NCBI GenBank assembly: GCA_964494015.1
Contig: CAZBQC010000001.1
Span: 7,551-71,550, forward strand
Length of the DNA stretch: 64,000 bases
Direction: 5' to 3'
DNA from: an uncultured Muribaculaceae bacterium
GTDB taxonomy: Bacteria; Bacillota_I; Bacilli_A; RF39; UBA660
In this document: positions 1 through 34,706 of the stretch, piece by piece
Layout of the letters: each line of letters opens with the position of its first letter
Numbering within the stretch: position 1 is the stretch's first letter
The notes under the pieces: generated by a model
The model's input: only the letters and a program-made list of their open reading frames with translations
Told to the model about the DNA's origin: nothing
The model's database searches: none
Translations under genes and position numbers: made by a program

Positions 1-911
1 GAATCGATGAACCAACATTACAGATGACGATTGGTACTAATTCTAGTCCTTTTGTGGGACTGGATGGTAAGATCTTGACAGCGAGAAAGATCGAAGAGAG
101 ATTAGTCAAAGAAACCCAAAAAGATGTCAGTTTAAGAGTTGAACCATACGATAAAGAAAGTTTCTTAGTTAGTGGTCGAGGAGAGTTACATTTAGGGATT
201 CTAGTTGAAAACATGCGTCGTGAAGGTTTTGAGATCGAAATTAGTAAACCGGTTGTCATTATTAAGGAAGTTGACGGGATTAAGATGGAGCCTTATGAAG
301 AGTTACAAGTTGAAGTACCAGAAGAGACAGTCGGTAATGTCATCGAGGAGTTAGGACAGCGTGGTGCGATCATGGAAAACATGACTAATTTTGGCAATCA
401 GGCCCGAATTATTTATTCGATTTCCTCTCGTGGTTTAATTGGCTTTATGACTGATTTTATGACTCTAACTAAAGGTTATGGAATTATCAATCACAGTTTT
501 AAGGAGTATCGTCCATATCAAAATATTGTCATCGGAGAGAGGACTTTAGGAGTACTTGTTTCATCAGAAACGGGGAAGGCGACAGCTTATGGAATTGGAC
601 AGTTAGAAGATCGTGGAGTTATGTTTATCGAACCAGGAACTGATGTTTATCAAGGAATGATCGTTGGAGAGTGTAATCGTGATCATGACTTAGCTATCAA
701 TATCGTAAAAGGTAAACAGCTTACCAACATGAGAGCAGCCGGAAGTGATCATACCGTCGTATTAAAGAGACCAAGACCAATTACTCTAGAATATGCCATG
801 GAATACATCAATCACGATGAATTAATTGAAGTGACACCAAACTATATTAGATTACGAAAAAGACTCCTTAATGCTCTTGATCGCAAGAAAAATGAGATAA
901 GAAATAATTAA
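1..911 (+). CDS. typA: Translational GTPase TypA/BipA, C-terminal part. The gene is 5' partial and continues upstream of the window.
   Basis: The open frame reaches the window edge. The sequence is BipA C-terminal-like (GRGELHLGILVENMRREGFE, RPITLEYAMEYINHDELIEVTP). The stop is at 909-911. Confidence 0.85.
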   Translation, partial: IDEPTLQMTIGTNSSPFVGLDGKILTARKIEERLVKETQKDVSLRVEPYDKESFLVSGRGELHLGILVENMRREGFEIEISKPVVIIKEVDGIKMEPYEELQVEVPEETVGNVIEELGQRGAIMENMTNFGNQARIIYSISSRGLIGFMTDFMTLTKGYGIINHSFKEYRPYQNIVIGERTLGVLVSSETGKATAYGIGQLEDRGVMFIEPGTDVYQGMIVGECNRDHDLAINIVKGKQLTNMRAAGSDHTVVLKRPRPITLEYAMEYINHDELIEVTPNYIRLRKRLLNALDRKKNEIRNN

Positions 912-915
912 AAAT

Positions 916-957
916 AAGTATCAGTATAAAAAAAATACTAGTACTTATTTTTATTTT
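916..957 (+). terminator. Rho-independent terminator of typA.
   Basis: Stem AAGTATCAGTAT / ATACTAGTACTT (5+5 bp with a 2-nt internal mismatch) around an A8 loop, followed by ATTTTTATTTT. Confidence 0.55.
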
Positions 958-1006
958 GTGTTATGATATTCGTGTATAATATGTAAAAGATAGGAGACTA
1001 TTTATG
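925..1006 (+). repeat. Copy 1 of a duplicated ~80-nt upstream block: terminator-like ACTAGTACTTATT, an extended -10 promoter (TGTTATGAT / TATAAT) and an RBS.
   Basis: About 80% identical to 2150-2230. Both copies end in GGAGACTATTTATG / GGGGACTATTTATG. Confidence 0.7.
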
Positions 1007-1942
1007 AGTAAAAAGATTATTTTTTCCTTGATATTGTTTGTTGGAGTTTTTTTTGCGTTTGGTATAAGAGTTAAAGCCGTAAATTGTTTTTATCATAAAT
1101 ATGATTCAAATACAAGTGGACCAGATTCTACCATAAGCTTAAATATTAATAATTATGGTACTCAATCTGCTACTGTTACATTAATGGCTACGCCTGAAAA
1201 GATAACACCTGACTCAGCAAAATATGCTGACTTGACAAGCATCGATTTACTGACAGAAAAAAAAATAGGTTTTTATTACGAACAAGCAGCTCTTGGGGGT
1301 GATTATCAAGTTGAAGGAGATAGATTTATAACTTTTAGTGGAGATAGTTGTAAAGATGGAAAATGTTGCCCGCTGTATGTTGGATTTAATGTTCATAGTC
1401 CTAATGAAGAAGGTCAAGAGTATAATCCAAATATTTTTATTGTTGGTGATAATATTATTACTAGGGTAGAAGGAAGTTTCTTACCGACAGGTAATACCAT
1501 ACTTCCCGTTAAAGAAAATTGGAAAACATCTGGTGTCAGCTCAAAATCAGAAATCCCAACGATATTTACGCCACAATATATTTATGGAACATACATTGTA
1601 GATGAGGAAAAAACGGAAGATAAAATTGATAAATATGAAGGTCTTATTGGAACAGATGTTGAAAATACTTGTGAAGGTATTTTAGGTAAAGATTTCGTTG
1701 ATTTTATGAATAACTATATATTTTTGCCTCTAAAAATCATTGTACCGATATTGTTCTTGATATTTACAATTTTAGATTTTTCCAAAGCTGTTTTTGCAGA
1801 AGATAAGGATGCTCTTAAACATGCCCAATCTAAACTTATTAAAAGAGCGATTACTGTAGTTTTGTTATTTTTACTTACATATGTTTTAGATCTACTGTTT
1901 GCAATAGTTACTAATGGAAGAATTACTGATTGTTTTAAGTAG
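1004..1942 (+). CDS. T4SS-associated secreted surface protein, paralog A. It has a signal peptide, a variable ectodomain and a conserved C-terminal two-helix membrane hairpin.
   Basis: N-terminal signal peptide MSKKIIFSLILFVGVFFAFGIRVKA. The last ~100 aa (ENTCEGILG...TNGRITDCFK) are conserved with 2228-3175. There are two hydrophobic helices separated by a charged loop. An RBS (AGGAG) lies 8 nt upstream. Confidence 0.5.
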   Translation: MSKKIIFSLILFVGVFFAFGIRVKAVNCFYHKYDSNTSGPDSTISLNINNYGTQSATVTLMATPEKITPDSAKYADLTSIDLLTEKKIGFYYEQAALGGDYQVEGDRFITFSGDSCKDGKCCPLYVGFNVHSPNEEGQEYNPNIFIVGDNIITRVEGSFLPTGNTILPVKENWKTSGVSSKSEIPTIFTPQYIYGTYIVDEEKTEDKIDKYEGLIGTDVENTCEGILGKDFVDFMNNYIFLPLKIIVPILFLIFTILDFSKAVFAEDKDALKHAQSKLIKRAITVVLLFLLTYVLDLLFAIVTNGRITDCFK

Positions 1943-2149
1943 GCTTTTTGTGATGAAAAAGGAATTTTTACTATTAATTACTAAGATACTTTTTTATTAA
2001 TATTCATTAAAAGATTTTATTGATTTTGTATTTTTAATAAAAGGATACAAGATTGCTGTTACTGTGAAAATGTTGTGATATTTATTTTTTAGATATTTTT
2101 ATTTACTTTTACATGAGCTATTACATTATATTATTGGTTATATTTTCAT

Positions 2150-2230
2150 AAAAATACACTAGTACTTATTCTTATTTTATGTTATGATATTTGTATAAAA
2201 TATATTGAAGACGATAGGGGACTATTTATG
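2150..2230 (+). repeat. Copy 2 of the duplicated upstream promoter block.
   Basis: See 925-1006. Confidence 0.7.
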
Positions 2231-3175
2231 AACAGAAAAATTATTTTTTCATTAATCTTGTTTATTGGAGTATTCTTTGTGTTTGGTGTAGAAGTTAAAG
2301 CTGCTGATGAATATAGCTGTACATATTATAAATATAATGGTGGGGATGAATCTGGAAATATAGTATATCGAGATGATAAAGAATTAACTATTGTAAACTA
2401 TAATCAAGCGGATTTAGGAGTTTACTTTAACGGTATAAAAATCTTTGGAAATCAAATCGCTAGTGGTCCCTTAAGAGGTGGAGAAGTAGCATCTTCAAAA
2501 AACGAAAACATTACATTTGCTGCTGATACTCTCGTCGTCTCGAGAGTAGCTAATAAGATAGATTTTCACGATGATGTTATTAATTTTGGATATTGTCCAA
2601 AGTATGTTGGATTTTATATTGTATATTTTCCTTTTGATACCGCGTATATTTATTTTCATATTGCTGGCAGCTCTATACCTGCTCATACTCCACCTGCTGC
2701 TAACGGTGTTTGGCTTTCTGTTATGAATTCGGGAGAGAAGTTGATTTCTGGAACCGATAATAAATCCGATCAAAATGAGAATTATTATGGGTTATACATT
2801 TCTGATGCAGCCATTAAAGAGCAGAATCCCGATTTTGTGTCTAAAACAAAAGGTATAGTTTTGGAATATTCTGGTATTATTGGAACTCCAGTTGAAAATA
2901 CTTGTGAAGGTATTTTAGGACAAGAGTTTATCAATTGGTTAGTTGATTATATATTTAATCCTTTGAAAATAATTTCTCCAATATTACTTTTAATCTTTAC
3001 GACCTTAGATTTTGCTAAAACAGTATTTGGAGAAGATCAAGAAGCTCTTAAAAAGGCTCAATCTAATTTTATAAAAAGAACTATTGCTGTTGTTTTATTG
3101 TTTTTGCTTGCATATATCTTGGATCTTGTTTTTACAATAGTTACCAACGGAAGAATTGATGTCTGTATCAAATAA
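2228..3175 (+). CDS. T4SS-associated secreted surface protein, paralog B. The ectodomain has diverged and the C-terminal hairpin is conserved.
   Basis: Signal peptide MNRKIIFSLILFIGVFFVFGVEVKA. It shares the CP(L/K)YVGF and ENTCEGILG...IVTNGRI C-terminal module with paralog A. Confidence 0.5.
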   Translation: MNRKIIFSLILFIGVFFVFGVEVKAADEYSCTYYKYNGGDESGNIVYRDDKELTIVNYNQADLGVYFNGIKIFGNQIASGPLRGGEVASSKNENITFAADTLVVSRVANKIDFHDDVINFGYCPKYVGFYIVYFPFDTAYIYFHIAGSSIPAHTPPAANGVWLSVMNSGEKLISGTDNKSDQNENYYGLYISDAAIKEQNPDFVSKTKGIVLEYSGIIGTPVENTCEGILGQEFINWLVDYIFNPLKIISPILLLIFTTLDFAKTVFGEDQEALKKAQSNFIKRTIAVVLLFLLAYILDLVFTIVTNGRIDVCIK

Positions 3176-3202
3176 AGTTTATTTCAGTTAAGGAGGTAAT
3201 TC

Positions 3203-5494
3203 ATGTTTGTATTTATATTGGCTGGAGATAGTATAGAAAACTGGATTCGTCAAATCTTTGTTAGTATTGATGTGGGAATTTTTTGGCTATTTGAACAGGT
3301 GTTAGCAAATGTTTTTGTTGTAGCTGGAGTAACTATTTTTAATGAAAAAATTATTAATGAAGTGCTAAATAGAATTTATATAATTATAGGATTATATATT
3401 ACATTTAAATTAGCTTTTTCGATTATCACTTATATTGTTTCTCCTGATAAAATGTCTGATCAGGAACAGGGGTTTGGTAAAATTATTACTAGAGTAATTA
3501 TCGCTTTATCACTTTTAGTTTTAGTTCCCTCTATTTTTGATTATGCTCGGAAAGCTCAATTTTATATTCTTCCAGTAATTCCTAGAATTATCTTGGGAAT
3601 ATCTTTTAACGCTGATGATCCTTCAAATGAAACGAATGAGATCAGTGAATCTACTATTAAACAAATTGCCCAAGCGATGTCATTAAATACTTATTTATCT
3701 GTTTTTAATTATAACACAAACTGTAATGATGCACATAATACGATTGCAGGTACTCCTGAAGCAACGGATCCAAACCAATTTTTAGTTGGCAAAATGAGTC
3801 ATATTTATGGAGCAGTCAATATTATGTGTGGTACTACTGAGGACGAATATAAATTTCAATACACCACATTTGTTGGTTTGGTTTTAGGATGCTTTTTAAC
3901 TTATATGATGTTGGGGATATCCATTGATGTGGCTATTCGAGCAATTAAGCTTGGTTTATTAGAGTTATTAGCTCCGATACCGATTATGAGTTATATTGAC
4001 CCAAAGTCTTCTAAAGATGGGGCATTTAGTAACTGGGTCAAATACTCGATATCAACCTATGTTGATTTGTTTGCCAGAATAAGTATTATATATTTAGTTA
4101 TCTTTTTCTTTGATCAATTATTCCAAGGGAATGTTCTAGGTGAATATGGTGCTCTTGTTTATATATCAATTATTGTTGGAATCTTTTTCTTTATGAAACA
4201 GTTTCCTAAGTTTATCAAAGATATCCTTGGATTAAAAGGTGAAGGACACATGTTTAGGGATGTTCTTACAGGGCGTGGCACTTTTGGATTGGCTACTGGT
4301 ACAATTGGAGGGGCTTACAAAGCTAAAAAAGAAGGTGGGTCAGCATTCCTTGGAGCTATAGGTGGTTTAGGGGGATCTACAAAAAAGTTTCTTAGTAATG
4401 CTGTGAAGGATGAAAGAGGGGGTACAGTTAGACCTGGTGCTAAAGCTGGAGAAGAAGTAGCTAAAGTTAATACCGGTTTTCGTGGAAGAATGAATAGGGC
4501 GGCTGGTGGAGCAAGAGCTAATAGATTAGGATATACACAATCACGAGTTGACGACTTGAGATCAGCTACGGAAAAGGCTAAATTGTTAGCAGATCAAGCT
4601 GGAAAAGAGTATAGTGCTGCTGTAACCTCTCGTAGACCTGCTTCCGAAGTTGATGCGGCACAAGCAAAGTATGATACGGCAAGGGAAGGTTATGAAAATA
4701 TTAATAAACGATATACACAGTTTAAGGGTGCCCGAGATAGTATGGTAAAAGAAATGCCGGCTGGAGAACAAATTGAAGCCGACAAAAAAGTAGCTCGGGG
4801 AAGATTAAAAACTGAGTATAAAGAGAACTTGGGTGCTGCTAGAAGTGAAAGAAAAGAAGTGGCTAGGGAAGCAAAAGAAGCTAGAATAGGTCTAAGAGAG
4901 AGTTATGAAAGTGAAGTGGAACCAGTTTTAAAAAGAAGAACAAAAACTGGTACTAGTGTAAAAAAAATTAATGACGCTATTAGAGATGAAAATGTAAAAC
5001 TAAGCAGAATACAAAGTGATATAGCTGATAGTCAAGGACTTCTTGATGAGTTAGAAGTCGATGGAGATCCTGCCGATGCTTCCAAAATTACTGAGTTAAG
5101 AGCTCACATTAGTGAAAAAGAATTAGAAAAATCAGATATAGAAAACGAAATAAAATTAAAACAAGAGGAGTTGCCAAGTGCAGAAAGAAAGTTTAAAAGA
5201 GCTAATCAAGATGTAAATAGAATAGAGGGGAAATATAGCGCATCTAAAAGAGGAATTAACGCTGCTGCTGCTGGAAATATAGGAGTAGCTAAGCAAAATA
5301 TTAGTGATTTAAAAGATGCTTATAGTAATGCTAAGGAATCAATTGATTCTGGTACTTATCTATTTAGTTCTTCGTCAACATCAAGTCCAGCACCAGCACC
5401 AAGTCCTGCATCAGCGCCAACAACTCCTGAGCCTTCTGCTGAAACTTCTCGATTGGATACTGTTCGACCTGGTGATGACGATGATGTCATGTGA
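3203..5494 (+). CDS. VirB6/TrbL-like polytopic membrane protein with a ~430-aa charged, disordered C-terminal extension.
   Basis: 6-7 predicted TM helices in the first ~340 aa. It sits in a T4SS gene context. The rest is K/E/A/R-rich coiled-coil-like sequence ending in a Pro/Ser-rich and acidic tip (SSPAPAPSPASAPTTPEPS...DDDDVM). RBS AGGAGG. Confidence 0.5.
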   Translation: MFVFILAGDSIENWIRQIFVSIDVGIFWLFEQVLANVFVVAGVTIFNEKIINEVLNRIYIIIGLYITFKLAFSIITYIVSPDKMSDQEQGFGKIITRVIIALSLLVLVPSIFDYARKAQFYILPVIPRIILGISFNADDPSNETNEISESTIKQIAQAMSLNTYLSVFNYNTNCNDAHNTIAGTPEATDPNQFLVGKMSHIYGAVNIMCGTTEDEYKFQYTTFVGLVLGCFLTYMMLGISIDVAIRAIKLGLLELLAPIPIMSYIDPKSSKDGAFSNWVKYSISTYVDLFARISIIYLVIFFFDQLFQGNVLGEYGALVYISIIVGIFFFMKQFPKFIKDILGLKGEGHMFRDVLTGRGTFGLATGTIGGAYKAKKEGGSAFLGAIGGLGGSTKKFLSNAVKDERGGTVRPGAKAGEEVAKVNTGFRGRMNRAAGGARANRLGYTQSRVDDLRSATEKAKLLADQAGKEYSAAVTSRRPASEVDAAQAKYDTAREGYENINKRYTQFKGARDSMVKEMPAGEQIEADKKVARGRLKTEYKENLGAARSERKEVAREAKEARIGLRESYESEVEPVLKRRTKTGTSVKKINDAIRDENVKLSRIQSDIADSQGLLDELEVDGDPADASKITELRAHISEKELEKSDIENEIKLKQEELPSAERKFKRANQDVNRIEGKYSASKRGINAAAAGNIGVAKQNISDLKDAYSNAKESIDSGTYLFSSSSTSSPAPAPSPASAPTTPEPSAETSRLDTVRPGDDDDVM

Positions 5495-5531
5495 TTTTGG
5501 TATTATGAAAATTAAAGGAGTGTGATACTTA

Positions 5532-5846
5532 ATGAATAACTATTTAATTCCAGCTAACAGCAAAAAAGGTCAATTAATTTTTGGTATCTTCAAAGGTGAT
5601 GATTTGATTATTTTTGGTGTTGGTGTTGGAGCGACATTACTAGCCTTGATAATTTTTCCTACTACCGATATAGTGACTGGAATACTTTGTCTATTACCGG
5701 CATTGGTAGCGGCACTTTTAGTATTTCCAGTTGCTAACTATCATAATGTTCGGACGGTTATCAAGGAAGTAATAAAATTTTACAGTGAGTCAAGAAGATA
5801 TATATGGAAAGGTTGGTGTTCTTCATATGAGCCAAAAAAGAAGTAA
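5532..5846 (+). CDS. Small two-TM membrane protein, VirB3/PrgI/TcpE-like.
   Basis: 104 aa with two hydrophobic helices. It lies immediately upstream of VirB4, as in Tn916 orf17/orf16. Confidence 0.45.
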   Translation: MNNYLIPANSKKGQLIFGIFKGDDLIIFGVGVGATLLALIIFPTTDIVTGILCLLPALVAALLVFPVANYHNVRTVIKEVIKFYSESRRYIWKGWCSSYEPKKK

Positions 5847-6378
5847 TTCTAGGTATACCGAAGATTGGATTCCAATCAAAGGTATTAGTGATGGTTCGAT
5901 TTTACTACCTAATAATTATCGAGTTACAGGTGTCAAAATCACTCCTCGAAATATCTTTATTATGGATGATTTGGAGCAAGAAAATGTTATGACGGCTCTA
6001 AAGAATTTCTATAATATGCTTAATTTTGAATTTTGGCTTATTGTGGCAGATCGTCCAGTTGACATATCGGTCTATTTATCCCAGTTGCAACTTTTATACA
6101 ACGATGCCTCTAATCAAGCCATTCGTAAATTAATTAATCAGGATATTAATAAAGCTAATATGTTTATTAATAATAATGTTGTCGATACGGAATATTACTT
6201 ATTATTTAGAGATAAAGATCCGGAGATTATTCAGAAGAAAGTTCGTTTGTTAATTAATGGGCTTGGAAGTTGTGGGCTTAATGCCAGTAAGACAACTGAT
6301 GATGATCTGAGAATAATTCTAGATAATTTCTTAAATGGTGGGGTTAGGACAGAATTTGGAACGGTGGTGCCACTATGA
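5785..6378 (+). CDS. VirB4-family conjugal transfer ATPase, N-terminal segment (separate ORF).
   Basis: The sequence DWIPIKGISDGSILLPNNYRVTGVKITP resembles the N-terminus of Gram-positive VirB4/TraE proteins. Its TGA stop overlaps the ATG of the next ORF (ATGA). The start is uncertain: GTG at 5785 or ATG at 5827. Confidence 0.5.
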   Translation: MSQEDIYGKVGVLHMSQKRSNSRYTEDWIPIKGISDGSILLPNNYRVTGVKITPRNIFIMDDLEQENVMTALKNFYNMLNFEFWLIVADRPVDISVYLSQLQLLYNDASNQAIRKLINQDINKANMFINNNVVDTEYYLLFRDKDPEIIQKKVRLLINGLGSCGLNASKTTDDDLRIILDNFLNGGVRTEFGTVVPL

Positions 6379-8159
6379 GTTTAAAATCAGAAATAGCTCC
6401 TAAAGGATTAGAATGGATGCCTAGTGAGTTTAGAATTAGTGATAAGTATGCCACTTTTTTAACAGTTGTATCTTATCCTAAATTCATTAATCCTGGTTAT
6501 CTATCAAATCTTACTAGTACACCAGGAATTAAGATTGTTATTAAACATATACCTGTACCTTTTTCAACGATTCAAAAGATGCTTAATAAACAAATTGCTG
6601 ATTTAAGGGTTCGCTATAACGAAGAAAAAGACAGGACGATGCAGGAGAGAATTAGACTTGATGCTGAAAGTTTGGAATACTTTGTAACGATGTTAGCTTC
6701 GAGTCAGTCTTTAATCTTTGATTTTCAATTACATATTATGGTTACGGCTGATACTAAAGATGAATTAGAATTAAAGAAAACCAATGTTAAGAATTACTTA
6801 GATGCTATGGAGTTGCGTGCTGTAACTCTTCGTTTTCAGCAAGAAACAATTTTTAAATCGGTTTTACCGATTTTCCCAAAACAGGCTATTGAAGAACGTA
6901 TCGGAACTCCTATTCCTTCAGTGACTGTCGCAGCCATGTATCCGTTTATTTTTGATAGCATTAAGGATCCTGGTTTATCAATTCTTTTTGGAGTAGACTT
7001 TTCTGGTGGTGTTATTCTCTTTAATCAGTTTTTATTTAAGATTCGTAAAGAGACCAATCGAAATAATGCCAATATGGTTATTTTAGGTACTTCAGGTAGT
7101 GGTAAATCTACTGCTGCTAAACTTTTATTGCGTGGTCATATTCGAAATGGTTGTCAAATTGTAGCGATCGACCCCGAAAATGAACTTGAAGAAATGACGA
7201 CGCTTTATGGTGGAGATGTAGTCGATATTGGCAAAGGTGGAGAGTTTGGAATGGTTAATCCTCTTCAAGCCATTATGGATGCCGATGAAGAAGAAGTGGC
7301 CAGTGGTCTTGGATATACTGTTTTAACTAGAACCTTACAATTTTTGAAAGCCTTTATGCGTTATTATTCACCGGATATTCAGGATGATGTTTTAACTCTT
7401 TTCAGTGAAGTTGTTCAAGATACTTATCAGAGATTTGAAATAAATTTTGATACTGATTTTTCAGATTATGAACCGGAAGATTTTCCAACTTTCAGCGATG
7501 TTTATGCTACCATTAAGGGAAGATTGACGTCGATGACCGATGCGACTCATGAACGAGATGTCATGGAACGACTTGAATTAAAAGTACGTCCATTTACTAA
7601 AGAATTAAGATATTACTTTGATGGACCGACAACTATACCATCGGATTCAGACTTTATTGTCTTCAATATTAAAGAGATAATGAATGCTGATACTAATATT
7701 AGAAATGCTTTATTCTTTAATATTTTAAAATATGCTTGGGGACTTTGCTTAGATCAGTCAGTTGATACAGTGTTAATGGTTGATGAAGCCCATGTCCTAT
7801 TAAGTGGCAACAATATTTTAGGAGCCGACTTTTTAGGTCAGGTTCAAAGACGTGCCAGAAAGTATAACACGGGAACGATTATTATTACACAACAACCTAG
7901 TGATTTCTCTGATCCTAATATTATCACTCAAGGTAAGGCTATTTTTGATAATGCCGCCTATTATTTAGTCATGGGACTAAAGAAACAGGCAGTTGAAGAT
8001 TTGTCATTGCTTATTGACTTAAACGATAATGAGAGAGAGAGTATTAAGAGATATTCACAAGGACAAGCCCTGTTTGTCTGTGGTAACCGTAGGATGCAAA
8101 TAGATGTTGTCGTTACTCAAGAAGAATTAGAATCATTCGGTAGTGGCGGAGGATTATAA
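6375..8159 (+). CDS. VirB4-family conjugal transfer ATPase (TraE/PrgJ/TcpF-like), main body.
   Basis: Walker A ILGTSGSGKSTAAK and Walker B LMVDEAH. VirB4-like length and context. Confidence 0.75.
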   Translation: MSLKSEIAPKGLEWMPSEFRISDKYATFLTVVSYPKFINPGYLSNLTSTPGIKIVIKHIPVPFSTIQKMLNKQIADLRVRYNEEKDRTMQERIRLDAESLEYFVTMLASSQSLIFDFQLHIMVTADTKDELELKKTNVKNYLDAMELRAVTLRFQQETIFKSVLPIFPKQAIEERIGTPIPSVTVAAMYPFIFDSIKDPGLSILFGVDFSGGVILFNQFLFKIRKETNRNNANMVILGTSGSGKSTAAKLLLRGHIRNGCQIVAIDPENELEEMTTLYGGDVVDIGKGGEFGMVNPLQAIMDADEEEVASGLGYTVLTRTLQFLKAFMRYYSPDIQDDVLTLFSEVVQDTYQRFEINFDTDFSDYEPEDFPTFSDVYATIKGRLTSMTDATHERDVMERLELKVRPFTKELRYYFDGPTTIPSDSDFIVFNIKEIMNADTNIRNALFFNILKYAWGLCLDQSVDTVLMVDEAHVLLSGNNILGADFLGQVQRRARKYNTGTIIITQQPSDFSDPNIITQGKAIFDNAAYYLVMGLKKQAVEDLSLLIDLNDNERESIKRYSQGQALFVCGNRRMQIDVVVTQEELESFGSGGGL

Positions 8160-8188
8160 AAACAATTAATAGTAGGAGGTGACTTGGA

Positions 8189-10567
8189 ATGGATTTATCT
8201 GCACAAAGGAAAAAATTACTAGATCGTAACAATCTAGTAAAAAATCAAAGAAAAAATATTAGTAATAGTAATTCTAATTCTAATTTTAATTCTAATGAAC
8301 AAGACACCTCTAATCCGCTTGCCAATCGTAAACCTCATCCTAATAAATCACTTTTTGGTCGATCAGATGGGGTTGATAAAAATCAAGACTCAAGTGATGA
8401 AACAAAAGATTCTAGTGAACCAGCAAGTACTGCTGGTAATAGCAATGCTGATACTAGTGATGAGTCAACTGATCTTTTAGGTGGTCTTAACAATCAGGTT
8501 TCAGGTAAGATTAAGGGGACTTTGGTTACTAAAGCGTTAGCAGTCGCTAGTCCTTTCCTTTTTGTAGGCATTTTCGTTGTCATTATTATCATTATTGTTA
8601 TTATTGAGTTAAAAAAATATTTACCATTTTTAAGTTATGGTGCTAATACCACTATTAGTGTTAATGCTAATAATACATCTTATAACTCTGTTACTCATAC
8701 GACTTCTGAAACTGATCCATTAAGAGCAAAAGAAGATCTCTTTAATCAAAAATTGGATGAAGTTTGGAATGTTTTCAACGACAAAGCCAATGTAAGTATC
8801 GATATTGATTATATTATCGGAGCTTTGTTTTATGACAAGATTGATCTCCAATTTTTAGAGTCGGAAGATTTGACGACTGAAGAAGTGACCGGTACTTATA
8901 AGAATGGTCTTGAAAAGATTTACATTTTGGCTCAGTATCAAGTTACTACTCACATCTATGAAAATAATGATAGTGGTGAATCTTCAGTTGATCCTACTGA
9001 AAAAAGAGAAGTAGCTAAAAATGATGCATCTGATACTGCTGAGACCTGGTATAAAGAAATTTTTAATGGTACTTGGAATTATGAAGAAGCTAATTTTCAA
9101 ACCCATTATGGAGAATTTGAAAATTTAGATACAGTTTATACCGTCGATGTTTCTAAGAAAGGGGTTTTTTATTGGAATTTAGTTGATGGGGATTTTATTA
9201 CTACTTATTATGCCAATCAATTTACTTCTGATATGACCGATGCTCAAAGAGAGGCTAAAAAAATTATTATTGCCGATAGAATATATCAGTTTGTTGAAGA
9301 CTTTAAAAAAGTTAAAAATAAAAATTATGGATATTTAACTGATGGATTAAAGGTTAATTTATATACCTGTGACTATAATGAAACACTTTATTTCCTTGGT
9401 GGTAACGGGTATAGTGTTTCTACTCTCGCCAATGAAGGAACAAGTTATCCGACTTACACTAATTTTAAAAATTATGTTAAGGGTGCTATTTATGGAGAAA
9501 TACCGTCTAGTATGAATGAAAATACTAAGGAGTCGGTTAAAGCGTTTATTATTGCTTTTAGTAGCTATGCTTTAGCTAGATCTAGTTACAGTAGTGGTGC
9601 TACTGAAATTGATGTCCATGTGGGAAATTGTTGGCAATTATCGTGTGATCCTTTATTAGGATGCCAATATTGCAATAGTAAAATTGGAAAATACGGTACG
9701 AATATAACTGGTGTAGATTCAACCTGTCCACATGGTAGGATTTGGTCGCCAAGAGAACCACTTGACGAGGCAACTAATGCTTGGTTCGATTCAGTTGTCG
9801 ATGAAGTTTTCGGTACAGTTATGATGAATGCTTCAGGAAATTTCTTTCGTGCTGGTCATTATGATAAAAAATCCAACCCAAATTGTGGAGCTAATTGCAT
9901 GGGGCAGGCTGATGCTGTTAAGGATGCTGCAAATGGCATGACTTATGAGCAAATTTTAGCTAAGTATTATTCTGGCTATGAGCTTGTCAATATTAAAGAA
10001 GATTTGTATATCCAAAATGCTAATTATGGTAATGGTGGTGTCGTTCTCAACCAGCTTTTTCATTATCATCAGGGAGATTATACAGAACGTAACTTTTGTG
10101 GTAGATCTGATGCTAGTATTGCTTCATCAGGTTGCGGTGTCGTAGCCGGTGCTATTGCGGTCTCGCTTTTAAAAAACCAGGCTGTTGATCCTAAAACAGT
10201 TATGGAGTTTGCTCATGCCAATAAAATGTGTGGTTATGGTATAAGTGGTACAGATGCGGGAGTATATGAATTGCTGGCTAAGAAACATCAGTTAAATTAT
10301 TCAGTGACCTACAAAGATAATGCTGTTGCTGTTGTCGATGCTTTAAAGACTAGTAAAGCCGTGGTTGTTGCCCATATTCCAGCTGGTACCAGTGGAACTT
10401 ATTCCAGCGGTTCTGGACACTATATCGTTTTTGTGGCCATCAATGCTAATGGACAAGCTTTAGTCTGGGATCCAGGGTATCGAAATAATCCACAACGTGA
10501 TAATGCATGGCATGATATGAATGAATTAGTCAAATATACCGATGCATACTATATATTGTCGAGGTAA
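8189..10567 (+). CDS. T4SS cell-wall hydrolase (VirB1 functional analogue) with a SpoIID/LytB-like domain and a C39-like/papain-like cysteine peptidase domain.
   Basis: N-terminal NSNSNS low-complexity region and a single TM helix (FLFVGIFVVIIIIIVII). ALARSSY...NCWQLSCDP...ILAKYYSGYEL resembles SpoIID. CG...SGCGVVAGA...GHYIVFVAINANGQALVWDPG is a Cys/His/Asp triad layout of the C39_2 type. RBS AGGAGGTGA. Confidence 0.45.
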   Translation: MDLSAQRKKLLDRNNLVKNQRKNISNSNSNSNFNSNEQDTSNPLANRKPHPNKSLFGRSDGVDKNQDSSDETKDSSEPASTAGNSNADTSDESTDLLGGLNNQVSGKIKGTLVTKALAVASPFLFVGIFVVIIIIIVIIELKKYLPFLSYGANTTISVNANNTSYNSVTHTTSETDPLRAKEDLFNQKLDEVWNVFNDKANVSIDIDYIIGALFYDKIDLQFLESEDLTTEEVTGTYKNGLEKIYILAQYQVTTHIYENNDSGESSVDPTEKREVAKNDASDTAETWYKEIFNGTWNYEEANFQTHYGEFENLDTVYTVDVSKKGVFYWNLVDGDFITTYYANQFTSDMTDAQREAKKIIIADRIYQFVEDFKKVKNKNYGYLTDGLKVNLYTCDYNETLYFLGGNGYSVSTLANEGTSYPTYTNFKNYVKGAIYGEIPSSMNENTKESVKAFIIAFSSYALARSSYSSGATEIDVHVGNCWQLSCDPLLGCQYCNSKIGKYGTNITGVDSTCPHGRIWSPREPLDEATNAWFDSVVDEVFGTVMMNASGNFFRAGHYDKKSNPNCGANCMGQADAVKDAANGMTYEQILAKYYSGYELVNIKEDLYIQNANYGNGGVVLNQLFHYHQGDYTERNFCGRSDASIASSGCGVVAGAIAVSLLKNQAVDPKTVMEFAHANKMCGYGISGTDAGVYELLAKKHQLNYSVTYKDNAVAVVDALKTSKAVVVAHIPAGTSGTYSSGSGHYIVFVAINANGQALVWDPGYRNNPQRDNAWHDMNELVKYTDAYYILSR

Positions 10568-10569
10568 AA

Positions 10570-11274
10570 ATGAAAAAATATAAATTATTGTTTTTAGTTA
10601 TATTGGTAGTTATTTTAACTGGTTGTCAAAGTACGACTAGTATTATAATTAATAAAGATTTATCAGTTAGTGAAGAAACATGGATCACTCAGGATACTGA
10701 GTTTTGGAATAATTTCTATAAGACTAGTCCGGCTTCATTAATTAATGAAGCTTTAAGTGATGAAAAGAATAAAAAGTTCTTAATCGATAACAATTATACT
10801 TATCGTACTGAGATTAGTAATTCTTTCAAAGGAGTAATTTTAGAAAAAAATTATTCATCACTGGAAGAATACTCTTCCAATTCAGCTTTAGCTAAAATAC
10901 CTTTTGATAAGTTAATCTATCAACAAAATGGAAATATTATTTCAGTTAAAACGGAAGGATTTAATTCATATCAAGACATAGTGGAAGATTTAGATGCCAT
11001 TTTAGTCAAATATGCCAAAATAAGTGTTTCAGTTCCTTATATTGTAACAGAACATAATGCTGATAAAGTCGATAAGGTAAATAATGTTTTTACTTGGGAA
11101 ATTGATAAAGAAACGACGGAAAAAAGTATTGTTTTAGAGTTTGATCAAAGTCGTTTGTTTATTAAACATCTTGATTTATATATATCTTTGGGAATAATTT
11201 TATTACTTTTAAGCATTCTTGGAGTGTGGTATTTAAAAATTCGAAAAAGTAATAAAATTAATAATAGAATTTAA
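10570..11274 (+). CDS. T4SS-associated lipoprotein with an additional C-terminal TM anchor. It is a possible VirB8/TcpC-position protein.
   Basis: Lipobox LTGC at residues 16-19 and a C-terminal hydrophobic helix LGIILLLLSILGVWYL. It sits between the hydrolase and the T4CP. Confidence 0.4.
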   Translation: MKKYKLLFLVILVVILTGCQSTTSIIINKDLSVSEETWITQDTEFWNNFYKTSPASLINEALSDEKNKKFLIDNNYTYRTEISNSFKGVILEKNYSSLEEYSSNSALAKIPFDKLIYQQNGNIISVKTEGFNSYQDIVEDLDAILVKYAKISVSVPYIVTEHNADKVDKVNNVFTWEIDKETTEKSIVLEFDQSRLFIKHLDLYISLGIILLLLSILGVWYLKIRKSNKINNRI

Positions 11275-11282
11275 AAGGTTTT

Positions 11283-11292
11283 GTGTTATAAT
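11283..11292 (+). promoter_or_regulatory. Extended -10 promoter (TGTTATAAT) for the coupling-protein gene.
   Basis: TGn + TATAAT lies 35 nt upstream of the GTG start. RBS AGGAGG at 11313-11318. Confidence 0.4.
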
Positions 11293-11326
11293 ATTCCTAG
11301 TTAATGAGCTTTAGGAGGTATGAGTC

Positions 11327-14290
11327 GTGAAATTAAAAATTAGAGCAGAATCAAAAGATGCTACAATCTTCATCATTTTTGCAGTTTTTCTTTTATATTT
11401 AGTAGCAGTCGGAGTACTTAATTTATCTAGTTTTGCCAGTTTTGGTGAATTTTATGGTTTAAATCCAATTGAAGCCTTTTCAGGTCGTTTTATTGTCCCA
11501 ACTATTATCTTTTATTTAATCGCTTTAGGCTCACTCTTCTTTACGACGGGATCATACTTTTTTGATTTAGAAGAGGGGATTGGTTTTTCTATCGGTTCAA
11601 AAAAAGAAAAGGGTTATAGTCGCTGGGCAACGGCTAAAGAAATGAAGAAAGAGTTAAAACTTGTTTATCCTCATGAAGAGAATTCTAGATATGCGGGTAT
11701 TCCTCTTATTAATAATGGTAAAGAAATCTGGGTTGACGACAGTCATTACCATAATTTAGTTATCGGTTCAACGGGTAGTGGTAAGACAACAGCTGTTATT
11801 TTCCCGATGGTCAGATTGCTTGCTAAACATAATGAATCAATGATTATTACCGATCCTAAAGGTGAAATTTATGAAAAGATGGCTGTCATGCTTAAATCAC
11901 GTGGTTACAATATCGTTTTATTGAATTTCCGTAATCCTCAAAATGGTAATTCATGGAATCCATTATCGATGCCATATAATCTATATAAAAATGGCAATCA
12001 GGATAAATCAATCGAGTTACTTGATGACTTAGCGCTTAATATCTTGTATGATGAAACTAATAAAAATGCCGATCCTTTCTGGGAAAAGACCTCGGCCGAT
12101 TATTTTTCTGGTATTGCTCTAGGTCTATTTGAGGATGCTGATCCGTCACAAATCAATATCAACAGTATCAGTTTAATGTCGACAGTCGGCGAAGAAAAAT
12201 TTGGTGGTTCGACCTATATTAAAGAATATTTTAATGGAAAAGATCCTACTGGTTCAGCCTTCATCAATGCTTCCAGTACGATTTTGGCACCAAGTGAAAC
12301 CAAGGGAGGGATTCTAGCTGTCTTTAAGCAAAAGATAAAACTTTTCGCTTCTCGTGAAAACCTATCAGAAATGCTTTCACATAGTGATTTTGATTTGTCG
12401 GATATTGGTAAAAAGAAAACCGCTTTATTCATCATTATTCAGGATGAGAAGAAAACCTATCATTCTTTGGCGACAATCCTTTTAAAACAGTGTTATGAAA
12501 CTTTAATCGACGTGGCTCAAGATAATGGTGGCGAACTGCCCATTAGAACTAATTTCTTAGTTGATGAGTTTGCCAATATGCCACCTTTAAAAGATATTGA
12601 CGTTATGATTACAGCAGCTCGAAGTAGAAAAATTCGTTTTACTTTGATCATTCAAAACTTTGCTCAGTTAAATGAAATTTATGGTAAAGAAACAGCTGAA
12701 ACTATTAAGGGTAACTGTGGAAATATGCTTTATTTGATCAGTACCGAGTTAGCTGCTTTGGAAGAGATAAGTAAAATGTGTGGTGAAGTAAAATCTAAAG
12801 AGAAGGATAAAACTGCTTCGACACCATTAATTACCGTCACTGATTTACAAAAATTAAAGTTAAATGAGGTCATTATCCGAAGAATTCGTCTTTCGCCATT
12901 TAAGACTAAATTAAAGGCCGAATACGAAATGAATTGGGGAAGAACTTATCCGAAAGCTCAGTATCCAGTTCGTGAAAAACAACCGATCAATATCTTCGAT
13001 ATGAGGACTTTTGTCAAAGAAAAAAAGAAAGCTAAGATGAATGAAATTTTGAATATGGATGCCAGTGGCAGTGATCCAATGGGAGGGTTTAATCCTAATA
13101 TGCCACCGTTCTTTAATCAAAATATGTTTAACAGTGAATCGCCGCCAGTTCAGGCTAATCCATATGGGATGAATGATCTTCCTCCTAATAATAACGATTT
13201 TAATATCGATGACTTGGTTAAGAAAATTGATCAGAAGATTGCTGAACTGGAAGAGGAAGAAAAAAGAAATAATCTGGCCATCGCAGCTGAGAATACCAAT
13301 TTACTGGAAGAACCAAAGGCAAGTCCTAATTTAGATCAAGCTATGGACAATTTTAAAATTGATCAGCCAATGATGGAAGAAAAACAGGTTGCTGAAGTCA
13401 GTCCTAGTCCAGGACCAGTATCATCGGAAAAAATTGTTGATTCTGATGTCGTCAATCAACCAAAAAACAATATTTTAGAAGCGGTCCCAATTCCAAACAA
13501 TAATTATTTTGAACCAATTTCTAAGAAGGAAGTTGTGCCAGCTAATATTAATTATCGTGATTTATATAATGACGAAGAAGATTCTGGCGGTGCGGTTCGG
13601 GAGATGGATAATATCAATCCCAAGGCTATTTATAACGTTTTAGAATCAACTAATTATGAATTGCCTAAAGAAGATAGACCGATTATTAAGGATGAGAAAC
13701 CTTTAGAAGACAAGGTAGTGGTAAGTGAACCAGTTAAGGAGGAACAACCAATACTAAATGCTGATTCCATACCAGTTAATGAAGAGGAGATTAATGATTT
13801 ATTTAAGAGTTTGAAAAATAATGTCGAGGAAGAAACTTTCTTTGATCAAAGAACACCTTTAAATAACAGTTTCAGTAGTCGACCTCGCTGGTTTGCTGTC
13901 GAAGAAGAGAACCAAGGTTATACAGCAGTTAGAAGACCAAAATCAAATAATCAGAACTCAGCTTTTGATTCAACTAACCACCCTAATGATAAAGTTTTTG
14001 ATAAGGGTTTGCCAGAAGATAGTTTTATCAGTCAGGAAACAGTCAATTTAAAACCAGTTGATCAACCAGTGGTAGTTGAGAAAGTAAAGTTGGAAACTGA
14101 TGATCTGTTTAAACCTAAAGACGCTAATCTCAATTGGTTTTCCGAACACGAAAATGATATAAAAAGTACAACTTTAGCAATTAATCCGGAAAATCTTCAA
14201 GAAGATATCAAGCAAGAAACCGTTAATGAAGAAACCGAATATAACGAAATAACTGATGATCAATTCTTTGATGATTTCTTTGATGACTAG
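11327..14290 (+). CDS. Type IV coupling protein (VirD4/TraG-like ATPase) with a very long acidic disordered C-terminal tail.
   Basis: N-terminal TM helices. Walker A LVIGSTGSGKTT, a DPKGE motif and Walker B LVDEFANMP. About 430 C-terminal residues are low complexity (N/P/E/D-rich) and end in DDQFFDDFFDD. Confidence 0.7.
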   Translation: MKLKIRAESKDATIFIIFAVFLLYLVAVGVLNLSSFASFGEFYGLNPIEAFSGRFIVPTIIFYLIALGSLFFTTGSYFFDLEEGIGFSIGSKKEKGYSRWATAKEMKKELKLVYPHEENSRYAGIPLINNGKEIWVDDSHYHNLVIGSTGSGKTTAVIFPMVRLLAKHNESMIITDPKGEIYEKMAVMLKSRGYNIVLLNFRNPQNGNSWNPLSMPYNLYKNGNQDKSIELLDDLALNILYDETNKNADPFWEKTSADYFSGIALGLFEDADPSQININSISLMSTVGEEKFGGSTYIKEYFNGKDPTGSAFINASSTILAPSETKGGILAVFKQKIKLFASRENLSEMLSHSDFDLSDIGKKKTALFIIIQDEKKTYHSLATILLKQCYETLIDVAQDNGGELPIRTNFLVDEFANMPPLKDIDVMITAARSRKIRFTLIIQNFAQLNEIYGKETAETIKGNCGNMLYLISTELAALEEISKMCGEVKSKEKDKTASTPLITVTDLQKLKLNEVIIRRIRLSPFKTKLKAEYEMNWGRTYPKAQYPVREKQPINIFDMRTFVKEKKKAKMNEILNMDASGSDPMGGFNPNMPPFFNQNMFNSESPPVQANPYGMNDLPPNNNDFNIDDLVKKIDQKIAELEEEEKRNNLAIAAENTNLLEEPKASPNLDQAMDNFKIDQPMMEEKQVAEVSPSPGPVSSEKIVDSDVVNQPKNNILEAVPIPNNNYFEPISKKEVVPANINYRDLYNDEEDSGGAVREMDNINPKAIYNVLESTNYELPKEDRPIIKDEKPLEDKVVVSEPVKEEQPILNADSIPVNEEEINDLFKSLKNNVEEETFFDQRTPLNNSFSSRPRWFAVEEENQGYTAVRRPKSNNQNSAFDSTNHPNDKVFDKGLPEDSFISQETVNLKPVDQPVVVEKVKLETDDLFKPKDANLNWFSEHENDIKSTTLAINPENLQEDIKQETVNEETEYNEITDDQFFDDFFDD

Positions 14291-14302
14291 AGAAACTTCC
14301 TA

Positions 14303-14350
14303 CCTATTTGTAATACTATAACATATAATACAAATAGGAGGGAGTTTTTT
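14303..14350 (+). terminator. Hairpin plus T-run downstream of the T4CP gene.
   Basis: Perfect 10-bp inverted repeat CCTATTTGTA / TACAAATAGG with a 16-nt spacer, followed by GTTTTTTATTT. Confidence 0.4.
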
Positions 14351-14354: not shown

Positions 14355-14648
14355 ATGGATACCATCGCCGTTATCGACTTTAAAAAAATAACTGGTATGG
14401 TTAAAGTAATAGATTTAAGAGATAATTATAAATATAATTTAAATAAAATACCTAATTCTATCAATGTACCATTTAGTTTTCTCATTACCAATCCTGATGA
14501 TTATATCAATAAAAATGATACTTACTATTTAATTTGTGAGTATGGTAAAAAGAGTTTAGAAGTCTCTAAGATTCTCAATCGACAAGGTTATAAAACGATT
14601 AGTATCTTAGGAGGATATCGAGATTATCAAAAAGAAGTTTCTGATTAA
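14355..14648 (+). CDS. Single-domain rhodanese-like sulfurtransferase.
   Basis: 97 aa with an active-site Cys loop CEYGKKS. RBS AGGAGGGAG. Confidence 0.6.
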   Translation: MDTIAVIDFKKITGMVKVIDLRDNYKYNLNKIPNSINVPFSFLITNPDDYINKNDTYYLICEYGKKSLEVSKILNRQGYKTISILGGYRDYQKEVSD

Positions 14649-14763: not shown

Positions 14764-14793
14764 TTGATATTGGTGATGTTTTTTTGTTATAAT
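14764..14793 (+). promoter_or_regulatory. Sigma-A promoter of polA.
   Basis: -35 TTGATA (14764-69), an 18-nt spacer, then the extended -10 TGTTATAAT (14785-93). Confidence 0.5.
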
Positions 14794-14815
14794 ATTTTTA
14801 TAGTGGAGGGTAATC

Positions 14816-19301: not shown

Positions 19302-20153
19302 ATGCGAACGTTGCAAGTCTTAGAATACGAAATAAACACTAAAATTATTAATAATGAAGATTATGTATCATTGACTGATATTGCAAAAAAAGTTAATCCA
19401 GAGGCACCTAGATTTGTGATTCAGAACTGGATGAGAAATAAAAACACGATTGATTTTATTGGATTATGGGAAATCATATATAATTATAATTTTAACCGTG
19501 TTGAATTCGAGGCGGTTAAATTGAAATATGGTTTTAATAGATTTGTTATGTCACCTACAAAGTGGATTGAGAATACTAATGCAATTGGTTTTATGACAAA
19601 AGCAGGTAAATATGATGGAGGGACATATGCTCATATTGATATTGCTTTAGAATTTGCATCATGGATAAGCCCGGAATTTAAATTATATATTTACACGGAA
19701 TTTAAAAGATTAAAAACAATAGAACAAAAACAATTAGGTTGGAATTTGAGAAGAACATTATCAAAAATTAATTATAATATTCATACCGATGCAATAAAAA
19801 ATAATTTAATACCAAAAGCAGTAACTAAAGATCAAATGAATCTAATATACGCAAATGAGGCAGATGTAATTAATGTTGCATTGTTTGGAATGACTGCCAA
19901 AGAATGGAAAATAAAAAATATAGGTAAAGTAGAGAATATAAGAGATTATGCCAATGTGGCAGAATTAGTTTGTCTAGTTAATTTAGAAAATTTAAATTCA
20001 GTTTATATAAATGAAGGAATGAGTCAAAAAGATAGATTAATTAAGTTAAATAATATAGCTATTCATCAAATGCAATTATTAACAAGTGATAATCGAATAC
20101 AAGCATTAGAAGAAGTTTCTCAAGTCAAATTGATTGAGGATAAAGAAATTTAG
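19302..20153 (+). CDS. KilA-N domain protein (phage-derived orphan).
   Basis: GTYAHIDIALEFASWISPEFKLYIY resembles the KilA-N/APSES core. It is flanked by terminators. Confidence 0.55.
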   Translation: MRTLQVLEYEINTKIINNEDYVSLTDIAKKVNPEAPRFVIQNWMRNKNTIDFIGLWEIIYNYNFNRVEFEAVKLKYGFNRFVMSPTKWIENTNAIGFMTKAGKYDGGTYAHIDIALEFASWISPEFKLYIYTEFKRLKTIEQKQLGWNLRRTLSKINYNIHTDAIKNNLIPKAVTKDQMNLIYANEADVINVALFGMTAKEWKIKNIGKVENIRDYANVAELVCLVNLENLNSVYINEGMSQKDRLIKLNNIAIHQMQLLTSDNRIQALEEVSQVKLIEDKEI

Positions 20154-34080: not shown

Positions 34081-34102
34081 TAGTGATTGGGGGAAGATTA
34101 AG

Positions 34103-34624: not shown

Positions 34625-34706
34625 TAAGAGTTTAAATAGATAAAAATTTTAATTTATAAAAACAAAAATATAGAGATTGATAAAAAATATCAATTTTTTT
34701 TGTTCT

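Follow-up and report, generated by a model that had tools for sequence, protein, structure and literature searches.

A relaxase-less type IV secretion cluster that is probably a chromosomal resident of uncultured gut Bacilli

Nearly all type IV secretion systems (T4SSs) known from Gram-positive bacteria are conjugative, and dedicated non-conjugative ones are a long-standing question (PMC12857230, 2025). That question is raised by the 64,000-nucleotide stretch analysed here (the window; positions 7,551 to 71,550 of contig CAZBQC010000001.1, from an uncultured bacterium of the RF39 lineage), in which nine tightly packed co-directional open reading frames (ORFs) at 1004-14290, between typA and a rhodanese gene, appear to encode such a system. 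Is this block part of a mobile element or a resident of the chromosome? A first-pass annotation, made from the letters of the window, had described a complete-looking Gram-positive T4SS bounded by typA on the left and by the rhodanese and polA genes on the right, and had offered two explanations, a relaxase-less integrative and conjugative element (ICE) of the mollicute type or a domesticated T4SS. The description holds, with the core components present, the ATPase motifs intact and the borders at the coordinates given in Table 1. On the features tested the predicted system is complete, and its NCBIfam and Pfam matches and nearest relatives place it in the MPF_FATA class. Our answer, given with some confidence, is that it is chromosomally fixed and vertically inherited and not a mobile element.

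The two ATPases are of the VirB4 and VirD4 types. Besides the family listed in Table 1, the larger VirB4 ORF matches TIGR00929 (5.5e-23) and the sequence of PDB entry 4AG5, a VirB4 (1.7e-55), and it carries Walker A (GTSGSGKS) and Walker B (VLMVDE) motifs. The ORF upstream of it, for which the start codon could be at 5785, 5818 or 5827, corresponds to the N-terminal part of the NF045975 model, and the two ORFs share the sequence ATGA at their junction, indicating that VirB4 is made as two polypeptides. The first-pass annotation had named the right types of component but counted eight proteins; with VirB4 split in two there are nine. The N-domain ORF would seem to be TrsD-like in its architecture, and PF26593, a TraC-like family, is found in its orthologs. 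Against a family cutoff of 590 bits, NF045975 scores 355.5 bits on the ATPase ORF and 53.7 bits on the N-domain ORF, which suggests that the VirB4 of the window is related to the CDS17-type VirB4 of mycoplasmas, yet is not an equivalog of it. VirD4 also matches PF10412 and PF12696 and, weakly, DotL and TrwB in the PDB; it is built of two N-terminal transmembrane (TM) segments, an ATPase core with Walker A and B motifs and an acidic, low-complexity C-terminal tail of ~490 residues. ATPases of the FtsK/SpoIIIE or HerA type were considered and rejected, as those families match the P-loop alone (PF01580 likewise). The first-pass annotation had held that an FtsK or an unrelated AAA protein would overturn its reading, and the VirB4 and VirD4 family matches in Pfam, NCBIfam and PDB 4AG5 rule this out.

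The block opens with two genes, A and B, that had been described as surface-protein paralogs. That they are paralogs is clear, with 39% identity overall, nearly invariant ends and an almost identical signal peptide, while each can now be described as a VirB2-like two-helix pilin domain preceded by a signal peptide and a hypervariable ectodomain. This C-terminal domain of ~100 residues (1640-1939 and 2873-3172 of the window) consists of two hydrophobic helices with a charged loop between them. In most related genomes it stands alone as a protein of 107-130 residues, and a tblastn search with a 107-residue pilin-only ortholog finds gene A with an E value of 9.5e-11. Taken alone, A and B fall below the Pfam threshold; they are tied to the pilin family by tblastn (1e-9 to 1e-10) and by alignment. 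Within the aligned family PF18895 (T4SS_pilin) is matched by 12 of 20 members, one of them at 27.7 bits against a cutoff of 26.6, and TrbC/VirB2 by two of the 20. Gene B also has a weak match to NF045848 (MMCAP2_0566), a family matched by 13 orthologs (best 9e-12). The family matches, together with the tblastn and alignment results, point to A and B being VirB2-like pilin domains fused to variable ectodomains. Two nearly invariant cysteines bracket the two-helix domain in the alignment, and a disulfide between them could tie the ends of the domain together, much as head-to-tail cyclisation does in TrbC/VirB2 pilins. A homolog search with paralog B found four proteins, because the ectodomain is too variable. 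An AlphaFold2 model of paralog B made from a four-sequence alignment had a predicted local distance difference test score (pLDDT) of 36.6, too poor for a fold search, and a profile of the pilin domain gave no meaningful match to the PDB sequences.

The remaining components would form the membrane translocon, the wall hydrolase and a scaffold. The VirB6-like protein begins with a weakly pilin-like N-terminus and ends in a coiled-coil tail that is long and of low complexity. Its orthologs match PF19597 TrbL_4 (12 members, 6e-11), NF045890 pLS20_p028 (nine) and NF045889 Mbov_0396 (seven), and the VirB6 of an Erysipelotrichaceae ICE matches the window protein by tblastn. The VirB3-like ORF is likewise found when the VirB3 proteins of two Erysipelotrichales ICEs serve as tblastn queries; its orthologs match PrgI and TcpE, and its position next to virB4 is conserved in 84 loci. 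For the lipoprotein, the ortholog at locus L081 is 28% identical (E = 1e-10) and one ortholog matches NF041428 TrsH, so a TrsH/VirB8-type scaffold is possible; an AlphaFold2 model of the lipoprotein alone (pLDDT 46.4) was too poor for a fold search. No protein of the block matched a Pfam or NCBIfam family of the VirB7/9/10 outer-membrane core.

The membrane-anchored hydrolase, which would take the role of VirB1, combines a SpoIID-like region, alignable with SpoIID+CHAP orthologs, with a C-terminal C39_2-like/papain-like peptidase domain, much as the first-pass annotation had it; these are predicted to be a glycan-cleaving and a peptidase module. Compared with the PDB sequences, the hydrolase gave no usable match. 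The slot that it occupies 3' of VirB4 swaps modules among species while the adjoining VirB4 stays ~80% identical. Across the alignment of this slot the glycan-cleaving module is SpoIID in 26 members, Glucosaminidase in five and phage lysozyme in three, and the peptidase module is M23 in 22, CHAP in six, C39_2 in six, NlpC/P60 in three and M15 in one. A SpoIIIA-type sporulation feeding tube, a candidate prompted by the SpoIID-like module, was rejected, since the other parts are plainly VirB/VirD4 and relatives substitute other glycosidases.

Genes for mobility were sought throughout the window. Neither a relaxase nor a recombinase, transposase or Rep protein was matched by Pfam or NCBIfam among the nine block proteins and 20 other non-obvious window ORFs. 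The remaining ~20 ORFs are housekeeping genes by translation (uvrC, mutL, miaA, sodA, galE, nusB, xseA and lon, as well as infC, rplT, rpsB, tsf, pyrH, topA, ispE and ruvAB), in keeping with the earlier statement that the window holds none of these mobility functions. Scans for repeats and tRNAs were negative too, as had been claimed: there is no tRNA in the 64 kb, and no direct repeats bracket the block, the only features at its borders being hairpins after typA and VirD4 and a promoter-like motif that polA has too. No homolog of the MobL relaxase of a related ICE was found in the window and, for the DDE (CDS22, Mutator-like) recombinase, neither a transposase family match nor terminal repeats. 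The same was seen in related loci. None of 10 Pfam-annotated contexts contains an integrase or recombinase belonging to an element, tblastn with the serine recombinase of a Thomasclavelia ramosa ICE found no homolog in 91 loci, and the single-stranded DNA-binding protein (SSB), Toprim protein, serine recombinase and MobL of the nearest ICEs had no homolog in ~100 loci. Across the same ~100 loci no relaxase, SSB, primase or ParA-type gene lies in or beside the cluster.

A protein search with the VirB4 ATPase ORF returned >7000 clusters, and the 120 top clusters inspected were all of ~595 residues and 78-81% identical to the query, save one at 93%. When each GTDB species was represented by a single genome, a scan gave at least 530 confirmed stretches, of which the best 80 loci come from 80 different metagenome-assembled genomes (MAGs), with VirB4 identities of 76-81%; the related species probably number several hundred. 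The guts of humans, mice, rabbits, ruminants and chickens are the source of these 80 MAGs, which bear the labels Bacilli, Tenericutes, Erysipelotrichaceae or Candidatus Onthousia; two of them are closed chromosomes, 1.31 and 1.52 Mb long. In a library of clusters made at 50% identity, the VirB4s of the whole clade fall into one cluster, the next relatives being 44%, 40% and then at most 34% identical.

Within the clade the order pilin-VirB6-VirB3-VirB4N-VirB4C-hydrolase-lipoprotein(s)-VirD4 is conserved (86 loci), and VirB4 is split in all 85 related loci compared, mostly with an identical ATGA overlap. All related loci contain the cluster; its location shifts by lineage, always amid housekeeping genes. 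The first-pass annotation had suggested asking of close relatives whether the typA-polA interval is empty; the cluster was found in other contexts, and the typA/polA flanks occur only here and in the 93% relative. Elsewhere polA is preceded by topA and followed by CDF and mutM, the downstream pair being the same as in the window, and in another sub-lineage the cluster is flanked by ackA-nrnA-engB-sepF-sigma factor on one side and by a cadherin-like protein and ftsW on the other. A fixed cluster with varying housekeeping flanks points to an old resident operon in rearranging genomes and not to an insertion. Directly upstream of the T4SS pilin genes, and on the same strand, 53-58 of the 86 loci carry a Tad-like pilus locus (for example L081, 1-5400, and L089, 1-4400) with CpaB/RcpC, a T2SSE ATPase, TadB/TadC-like proteins, a 60-residue pilin-like protein and a TadZ-like protein. 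This locus is absent from the 64-kb window.

The pattern of divergence is consistent with long residence. In comparison with the closest relative, the ratio of nonsynonymous to synonymous substitution rates (dN/dS), which is qualitative only as dS is saturated (>1), was 0.033 for the VirB4 N-domain ORF, 0.032 for the VirB4 ATPase, 0.03 for TypA, 0.05 for PolA, 0.15 for VirD4 and 0.28-0.46 for the pilin-domain proteins, VirB6, hydrolase and lipoprotein. Purifying selection on VirB4 is thus as strong as on TypA. VirB4 is also more conserved than PolA with the same distance profile, identities falling from 100 to 93 and then 76-81% for VirB4 and from 100 to 82 and then 61-64% for PolA. Among loci, pairwise VirB4 identity correlates with that of VirD4 (rho 0.87) and of the neighbouring housekeeping proteins RmuC (0.77) and DedA (0.66). 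The surface components are only 41-54% identical to those of the closest relative; their fast divergence and the swapping of hydrolase modules would fit selection from outside by partner cells, phages or the immune system. Of the two explanations first offered, the domesticated T4SS is thus supported by the conserved order, purifying selection, PolA-tracking divergence and changing neighbours, and by the lack of ICE mobility genes.

Several points weigh against a fixed, vertically inherited system. In addition to the saturation of dS, the VirB3 and lipoprotein assignments come from weak matches and gene position. A relaxase or origin of transfer (oriT) could lie elsewhere in the genomes, the coverage being ±10 kb for each cluster and 64 kb here. 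Vertical descent is read from distance profiles and synteny rather than from a reconciled species tree, and the loci were chosen by their VirB4 match, which places the fraction of clade genomes lacking the cluster outside these counts.

How the system might have arisen and might work can be proposed from its parts; for assembly, contact-dependence and the direction of transport we infer from established T4SS biology. A large group of uncultured gut Bacilli with small genomes would descend from an ancestor that kept the mating-channel module of a conjugative system, with the relaxase, integrase and replication genes either lost from the ancestral module or never linked to it. The VirB6-like and VirB3-like proteins would form a membrane translocon, energised by VirB4 as its TrsD-like N-domain and ATPase polypeptides, while the anchored two-module hydrolase would cut the wall locally and the lipoprotein would serve as a scaffold. 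The pilin-domain proteins would be surface-exposed, or build a short fibre or cap, from which their hypervariable ectodomains may contact other cells, and VirD4 would pick a cytoplasmic substrate and pass it into the channel. VirD4 fits both DNA and protein as substrate. Exchange of protein or another macromolecule with neighbouring cells, in a Patescibacteria-like manner, seems somewhat more likely than relaxase-dependent transfer of chromosomal DNA, a slight preference that stems from the absence of DNA-processing genes at the locus and from the Patescibacteria parallel.

In its fullest form, which we offer tentatively and would sooner doubt than assert, the proposal is that this is the Firmicute counterpart of the Patescibacteria T4SS: ancient, vertical, relaxase-independent and pilin-bearing, core and possibly essential in an order-level lineage of gut Bacilli, accompanied in most members by an adjacent Tad-type pilus, serving contact-dependent exchange of protein, nutrients or DNA, and the sibling or source of the mycoplasma ICE channel. 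Should the main reading, that of a chromosomally fixed T4SS, be right, there would be a second monoderm lineage with a chromosomal, relaxase-less, pilin-bearing T4SS, and one under a constraint above that on DNA polymerase I. Its members are Bacilli related to Mycoplasmatales, abundant but uncultured, in the guts of humans, ruminants, rabbits, mice and chickens. Such a system would point to a cell-contact-dependent lifestyle for these genome-reduced bacteria, extend the phenomenon to a large gut lineage of medical and agricultural relevance, allow comparison with an independent T4SS domestication, give the unusual mycoplasma ICE machinery an evolutionary setting, and supply a conserved marker locus and targets (VirB4, the pilins and the modular hydrolase) for work on cultured members.

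Of the alternatives, the one that survives best concerns the substrate and is a sub-hypothesis compatible with domestication, namely that the cluster is a machine for chromosomal DNA transfer, as in mycoplasma chromosomal transfer or release of the gonococcal-island type, with the relaxase or other DNA-processing protein encoded elsewhere. We regard it as unlikely, though it deserves serious attention. VirD4 is kept in the operon in all lineages under purifying selection, the closest homologs are all conjugative, and the best family matches are proteins of mycoplasma ICEs, the T4SS of which also moves chromosomal DNA (PMC12857230, PMC6030558). On the other hand, the genes for relaxase, SSB, primase and ParA-type proteins are missing from the ~100 loci, the slot upstream of VirD4 that holds MobL in a related ICE is occupied here by the lipoprotein, and VirD4-dependent secretion of proteins is also known (PMC12857230).

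DNA uptake, with the cluster serving competence in the manner of ComB or Ced, we consider improbable. A relaxase-less, chromosomal cluster with a Tad-like pilus locus beside it in most relatives would suit such a role, and in the Ced system and in Tad-type competence pili help DNA import (10.1101/2025.01.22.634366). ComB systems, however, are without a VirD4 coupling protein and work with ComEC, whereas VirD4 is present and conserved here and none of the loci examined has ComEA or ComEC linked to the cluster.

An ordinary ICE or genomic island, with its integrase, relaxase and attachment (att) sites just beyond the 64 kb, is more improbable still. The T4SS genes are typical of ICEs, ~10 kb of the 74,073-bp contig lie outside the window, and in some relatives a tyrosine integrase adjoins VirD4. 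Against this, typA and polA abut the cluster and the other 50 kb are core genome, bracketing repeats are absent, and the cluster occurs in every related species examined, in differing housekeeping contexts. The adjoining integrase is that of a prophage. The cluster occurs in four IMG/VR contigs (VirB4 68% identical), and in L098 (13207-17766) and L100 (13154-17259) a prophage module is integrated directly 3' of VirD4; in L098 Pfam recognises the tyrosine integrase, an S24 CI-like repressor and a G39P loader, and the ORFs of L100 match these in size and order. The inserted prophage explains the viral label of these contigs, and a viral origin of the cluster was rejected on this ground. It is hardly credible that the block is a functionless, decaying remnant of an ancient ICE, as might be supposed from the missing mobility genes and very divergent surface components, since the nine ORFs are intact here and in relatives, as are the ATPase motifs, VirB4 is conserved beyond PolA, its split with the ATGA overlap is kept in 85/85 loci and the gene order is kept across at least 80 species.

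The layout of the locus is given in Table 1. Nearly all window genes lie on the + strand, and the block has the same GC content as its surroundings (~31% for the window). The intergenic gaps at its borders are 92 nt on the typA side and 64+167 nt on the polA side. An extended -10-like motif, TTTTGTGTTATRATATT, occurs at 954-980, 2175-2201, 11279-11305 and 14780-14796, upstream of A, B, VirD4 and polA, which suggests that the pilin genes and VirD4 have promoters of their own. An Rfam scan of the whole window matched no family, and no riboswitch-type regulation is visible. The rhodanese gene does lie to the right of the block, as first described, but it may be a member of it rather than a flank, as it follows VirD4 in 23 related loci whose wider context differs; a functional link between rhodanese and T4SS may exist.

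Table 1. Features of the T4SS block and its borders (coordinates in the window; "." marks a feature without strand; TM, transmembrane).
Feature	Coordinates	Strand	Length (residues)	Remarks
typA	24-911			directly upstream of block
Hairpin right after typA stop	906..956	.		inverted repeat I11, 22-nt arms, 86% complementary; left border, without att-like repeat
Gene A leader	929..1003	+		promoter-like, with TTTTGTGTTATGATATT (extended -10-like); direct repeats D3, D4, D9
Gene A	1004..1942	+	312	signal peptide, variable Cys-containing ectodomain, C-terminal VirB2-like pilin domain (predicted)
Gene B leader	2150..2227	+		duplicated promoter-like copy, 84% identity to 929-990
Gene B, paralog of A	2228..3175	+	315	signal peptide and pilin domain conserved, middle hypervariable
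VirB6-like polytopic membrane protein	3203..5494	+	763	six hydrophobic segments; ortholog family matches
VirB3/PrgI-like small membrane protein	5532..5846	+	104	weak PrgI match (E = 0.035), two TM helices
Stand-alone VirB4 N-domain ORF	5785..6378	+		NF045975 positions 95-276, 7.7e-15
VirB4 ATPase	6375..8159	+	594	NF045975 at 4.7e-106; Walker A/B intact
Membrane-anchored two-module wall hydrolase (putative VirB1 role)	8189..10567	+	792	one TM segment
Lipoprotein	10570..11274	+	234	lipobox LTGC; extra C-terminal TM anchor
Extended -10-like motif 5' of VirD4	11279..11305	+		direct repeats D4, D9
VirD4-type coupling protein	11327..14290	+	987	PF02534 at 3e-55; NF045973 294 bits (cutoff 250)
Hairpin after VirD4 stop	14293..14348	.		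inverted repeat I21; right border of T4SS operon
Rhodanese, single-domain	14355..14648	+		PF00581 at 1.1e-11
polA	14816-17431			downstream of rhodanese

Some other genes of the window deserve mention. A KilA-N protein (1.1e-18; 19302-20153), between mutM and a minus-strand F420-ligase-like gene, is the only other gene near the block with the flavour of a phage or mobile genetic element. Further away, what may be the remnant of a small defence or mobile unit, unlinked to the T4SS, lies at 34046-37215 between xseA and a UvrD-like helicase: an AT-rich islet (25-31% GC) with a Bro-N protein, a RhuM in truncated form, a RhuM+Fic/DOC protein and an unknown 192-residue ORF. At 47737-51042 lies a gene for an 1101-residue DUF6273 protein with an N-terminal TM segment and an internal tandem duplication. 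Shorter DUF6273 proteins stand beside T4SS/Tad genes in 51/86 related loci, and the family may therefore be functionally tied to the system. The ribosomal proteins L20 (51998-52597, 199 residues) and S2 (52689-53735, 348 residues) each carry a C-terminal Rho_N domain (PF07498; 29 and 36 bits, cutoff 24.9) after a lysine/glutamate-rich linker, an extension that is unusual for both. Sporulation genes at 40408-41400 and 44562-46173 encode a SpoIVB peptidase and a SpoVID-N+LysM protein, with an adjacent 307-residue ORF that has no Pfam match; for all its kinship with MAGs labelled 'Tenericutes', the host is probably a spore-former with a wall.

Comparison with known systems begins with the closest named VirB4s outside the clade, which are 33-34% identical and come from Thomasclavelia ramosa/Coprobacillus, Solobacterium and Erysipelotrichaceae; another, on a Mycoplasmatota plasmid, is 29% identical, and the best plasmid-borne VirB4 in PLSDB is ~29% identical. 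Using the proteins of the nearest ICEs, tblastn finds VirB3, VirB4, VirB6 and VirD4 in the window and related loci, and the Erysipelotrichales ICEs share with the window the order VirB6-VirB3-(VirB4N)-VirB4-hydrolase. The T. ramosa ICE (L087/L088) has the same two-ORF VirB4 (225 + 606 residues) and adjoins housekeeping genes but, unlike the window, encodes sortase-dependent SpaA pilins, an SSB, a Toprim protein and a serine recombinase. The Erysipelotrichaceae ICE (L101) differs in carrying ArdC, TnpV and, immediately upstream of VirD4, the MobL relaxase in the slot that holds the lipoprotein in the window. These elements are insertions next to housekeeping genes, and their adhesins are not VirB2-like, unlike the pilin-domain proteins of the window. 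The judgement of the first-pass annotation that the block does not resemble Tn916 or ICEBs1 was correct.

Operons of the pGO1/pSK41 and pIP501 type encode TrsD, the VirB3-like TrsC, the bifunctional hydrolase TrsG/TraG, the lipoprotein TrsH, the coupling protein TrsK and the VirB6-like TrsL. They represent the MPF_FATA subclass with both TrsD and TrsE and share the part list of the window, including the separate gene for a VirB4 N-domain-like protein, but they are plasmid-borne and have a relaxase, Nes or TraA. To our knowledge no VirB2-like pilin has been described for them.

In the mycoplasma ICEs (ICEA/ICEB) CDS5 is VirD4, CDS17 VirB4 and CDS16 VirB6-like (PMC6030558, PMC12857230). The best NCBIfam matches of the window for VirB4 (NF045975), the VirB6-like protein (NF045889) and the pilin-like domain (NF045848) are to these elements, for which a canonical relaxase has likewise not been identified, and the host lineage of the window is related to Mycoplasmatales. 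In contrast to them, the window has neither the CDS22 DDE recombinase nor element ends, is fixed in the chromosome, encodes a wall hydrolase, which mycoplasma ICEs are without, and has a split VirB4 scoring under the family cutoff. The mollicute-type ICE first suggested thus stands as far as homology goes, and these family matches argue for true homology, but membership of that group does not. The Streptococcus suis 89K T4SS, like that of the window a minimal Gram-positive system of the VirB1/3/4/6/D4 type, has a non-DNA substrate, secreting the protein SspA-1 (PMC12857230). Unlike the block it is part of a pathogenicity island/ICE of one species and lacks pilin genes, and it is not a lineage-wide core locus.

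For these Bacilli themselves no report of such a T4SS was found in the literature, searches for RFN20/RF39 with T4SS or VirB4 yielding nothing relevant. A study of the RFN20, RF39 and ML615J-28 lineages describes them as reduced and partly reliant on scavenged muropeptides, with secretion and conjugation unmentioned (PMC10868615, 2024). That the system is undescribed, as was suggested, is plausible on this ground, although the concept of a relaxase-less chromosomal T4SS has been published for Patescibacteria; its extension to Bacilli would plausibly be new.

The chromosomal T4SS of Patescibacteria/Saccharibacteria (Southlakia epibionticum ML1, TM7x), which is relaxase-less and in Southlakia essential (10.1101/2025.01.22.634366; PMC12857230), would appear to be the closest functional analogue of the window system. 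Both are monoderm, MPF_FATA-derived, chromosomal and lineage-wide, in small genomes with no relaxase nearby, and both have a separate TrsD-like VirB4 N-domain gene by virB4, PrgI/VirB3 and VirB6, and peptidoglycan hydrolases downstream of virB4. Among monoderms, Patescibacteria are the only group known to have VirB2-like pilins (PMC12857230), which there form arrays of divergent members (PF18895) comparable with the two paralogs here, and a second type of pilus stands alongside in each, type IV pili in Patescibacteria and the Tad-like locus in most relatives of the window. The window system differs in belonging to Bacillota (class Bacilli), in having VirD4 inside the operon where in Patescibacteria it is usually unlinked, and in the fusion of the pilin domain to a hypervariable ectodomain of ~200 residues. 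Its nearest named relatives being those of Erysipelotrichales and Mycoplasmatota, a separate origin is suggested, and domestication probably took place independently of that in Patescibacteria.

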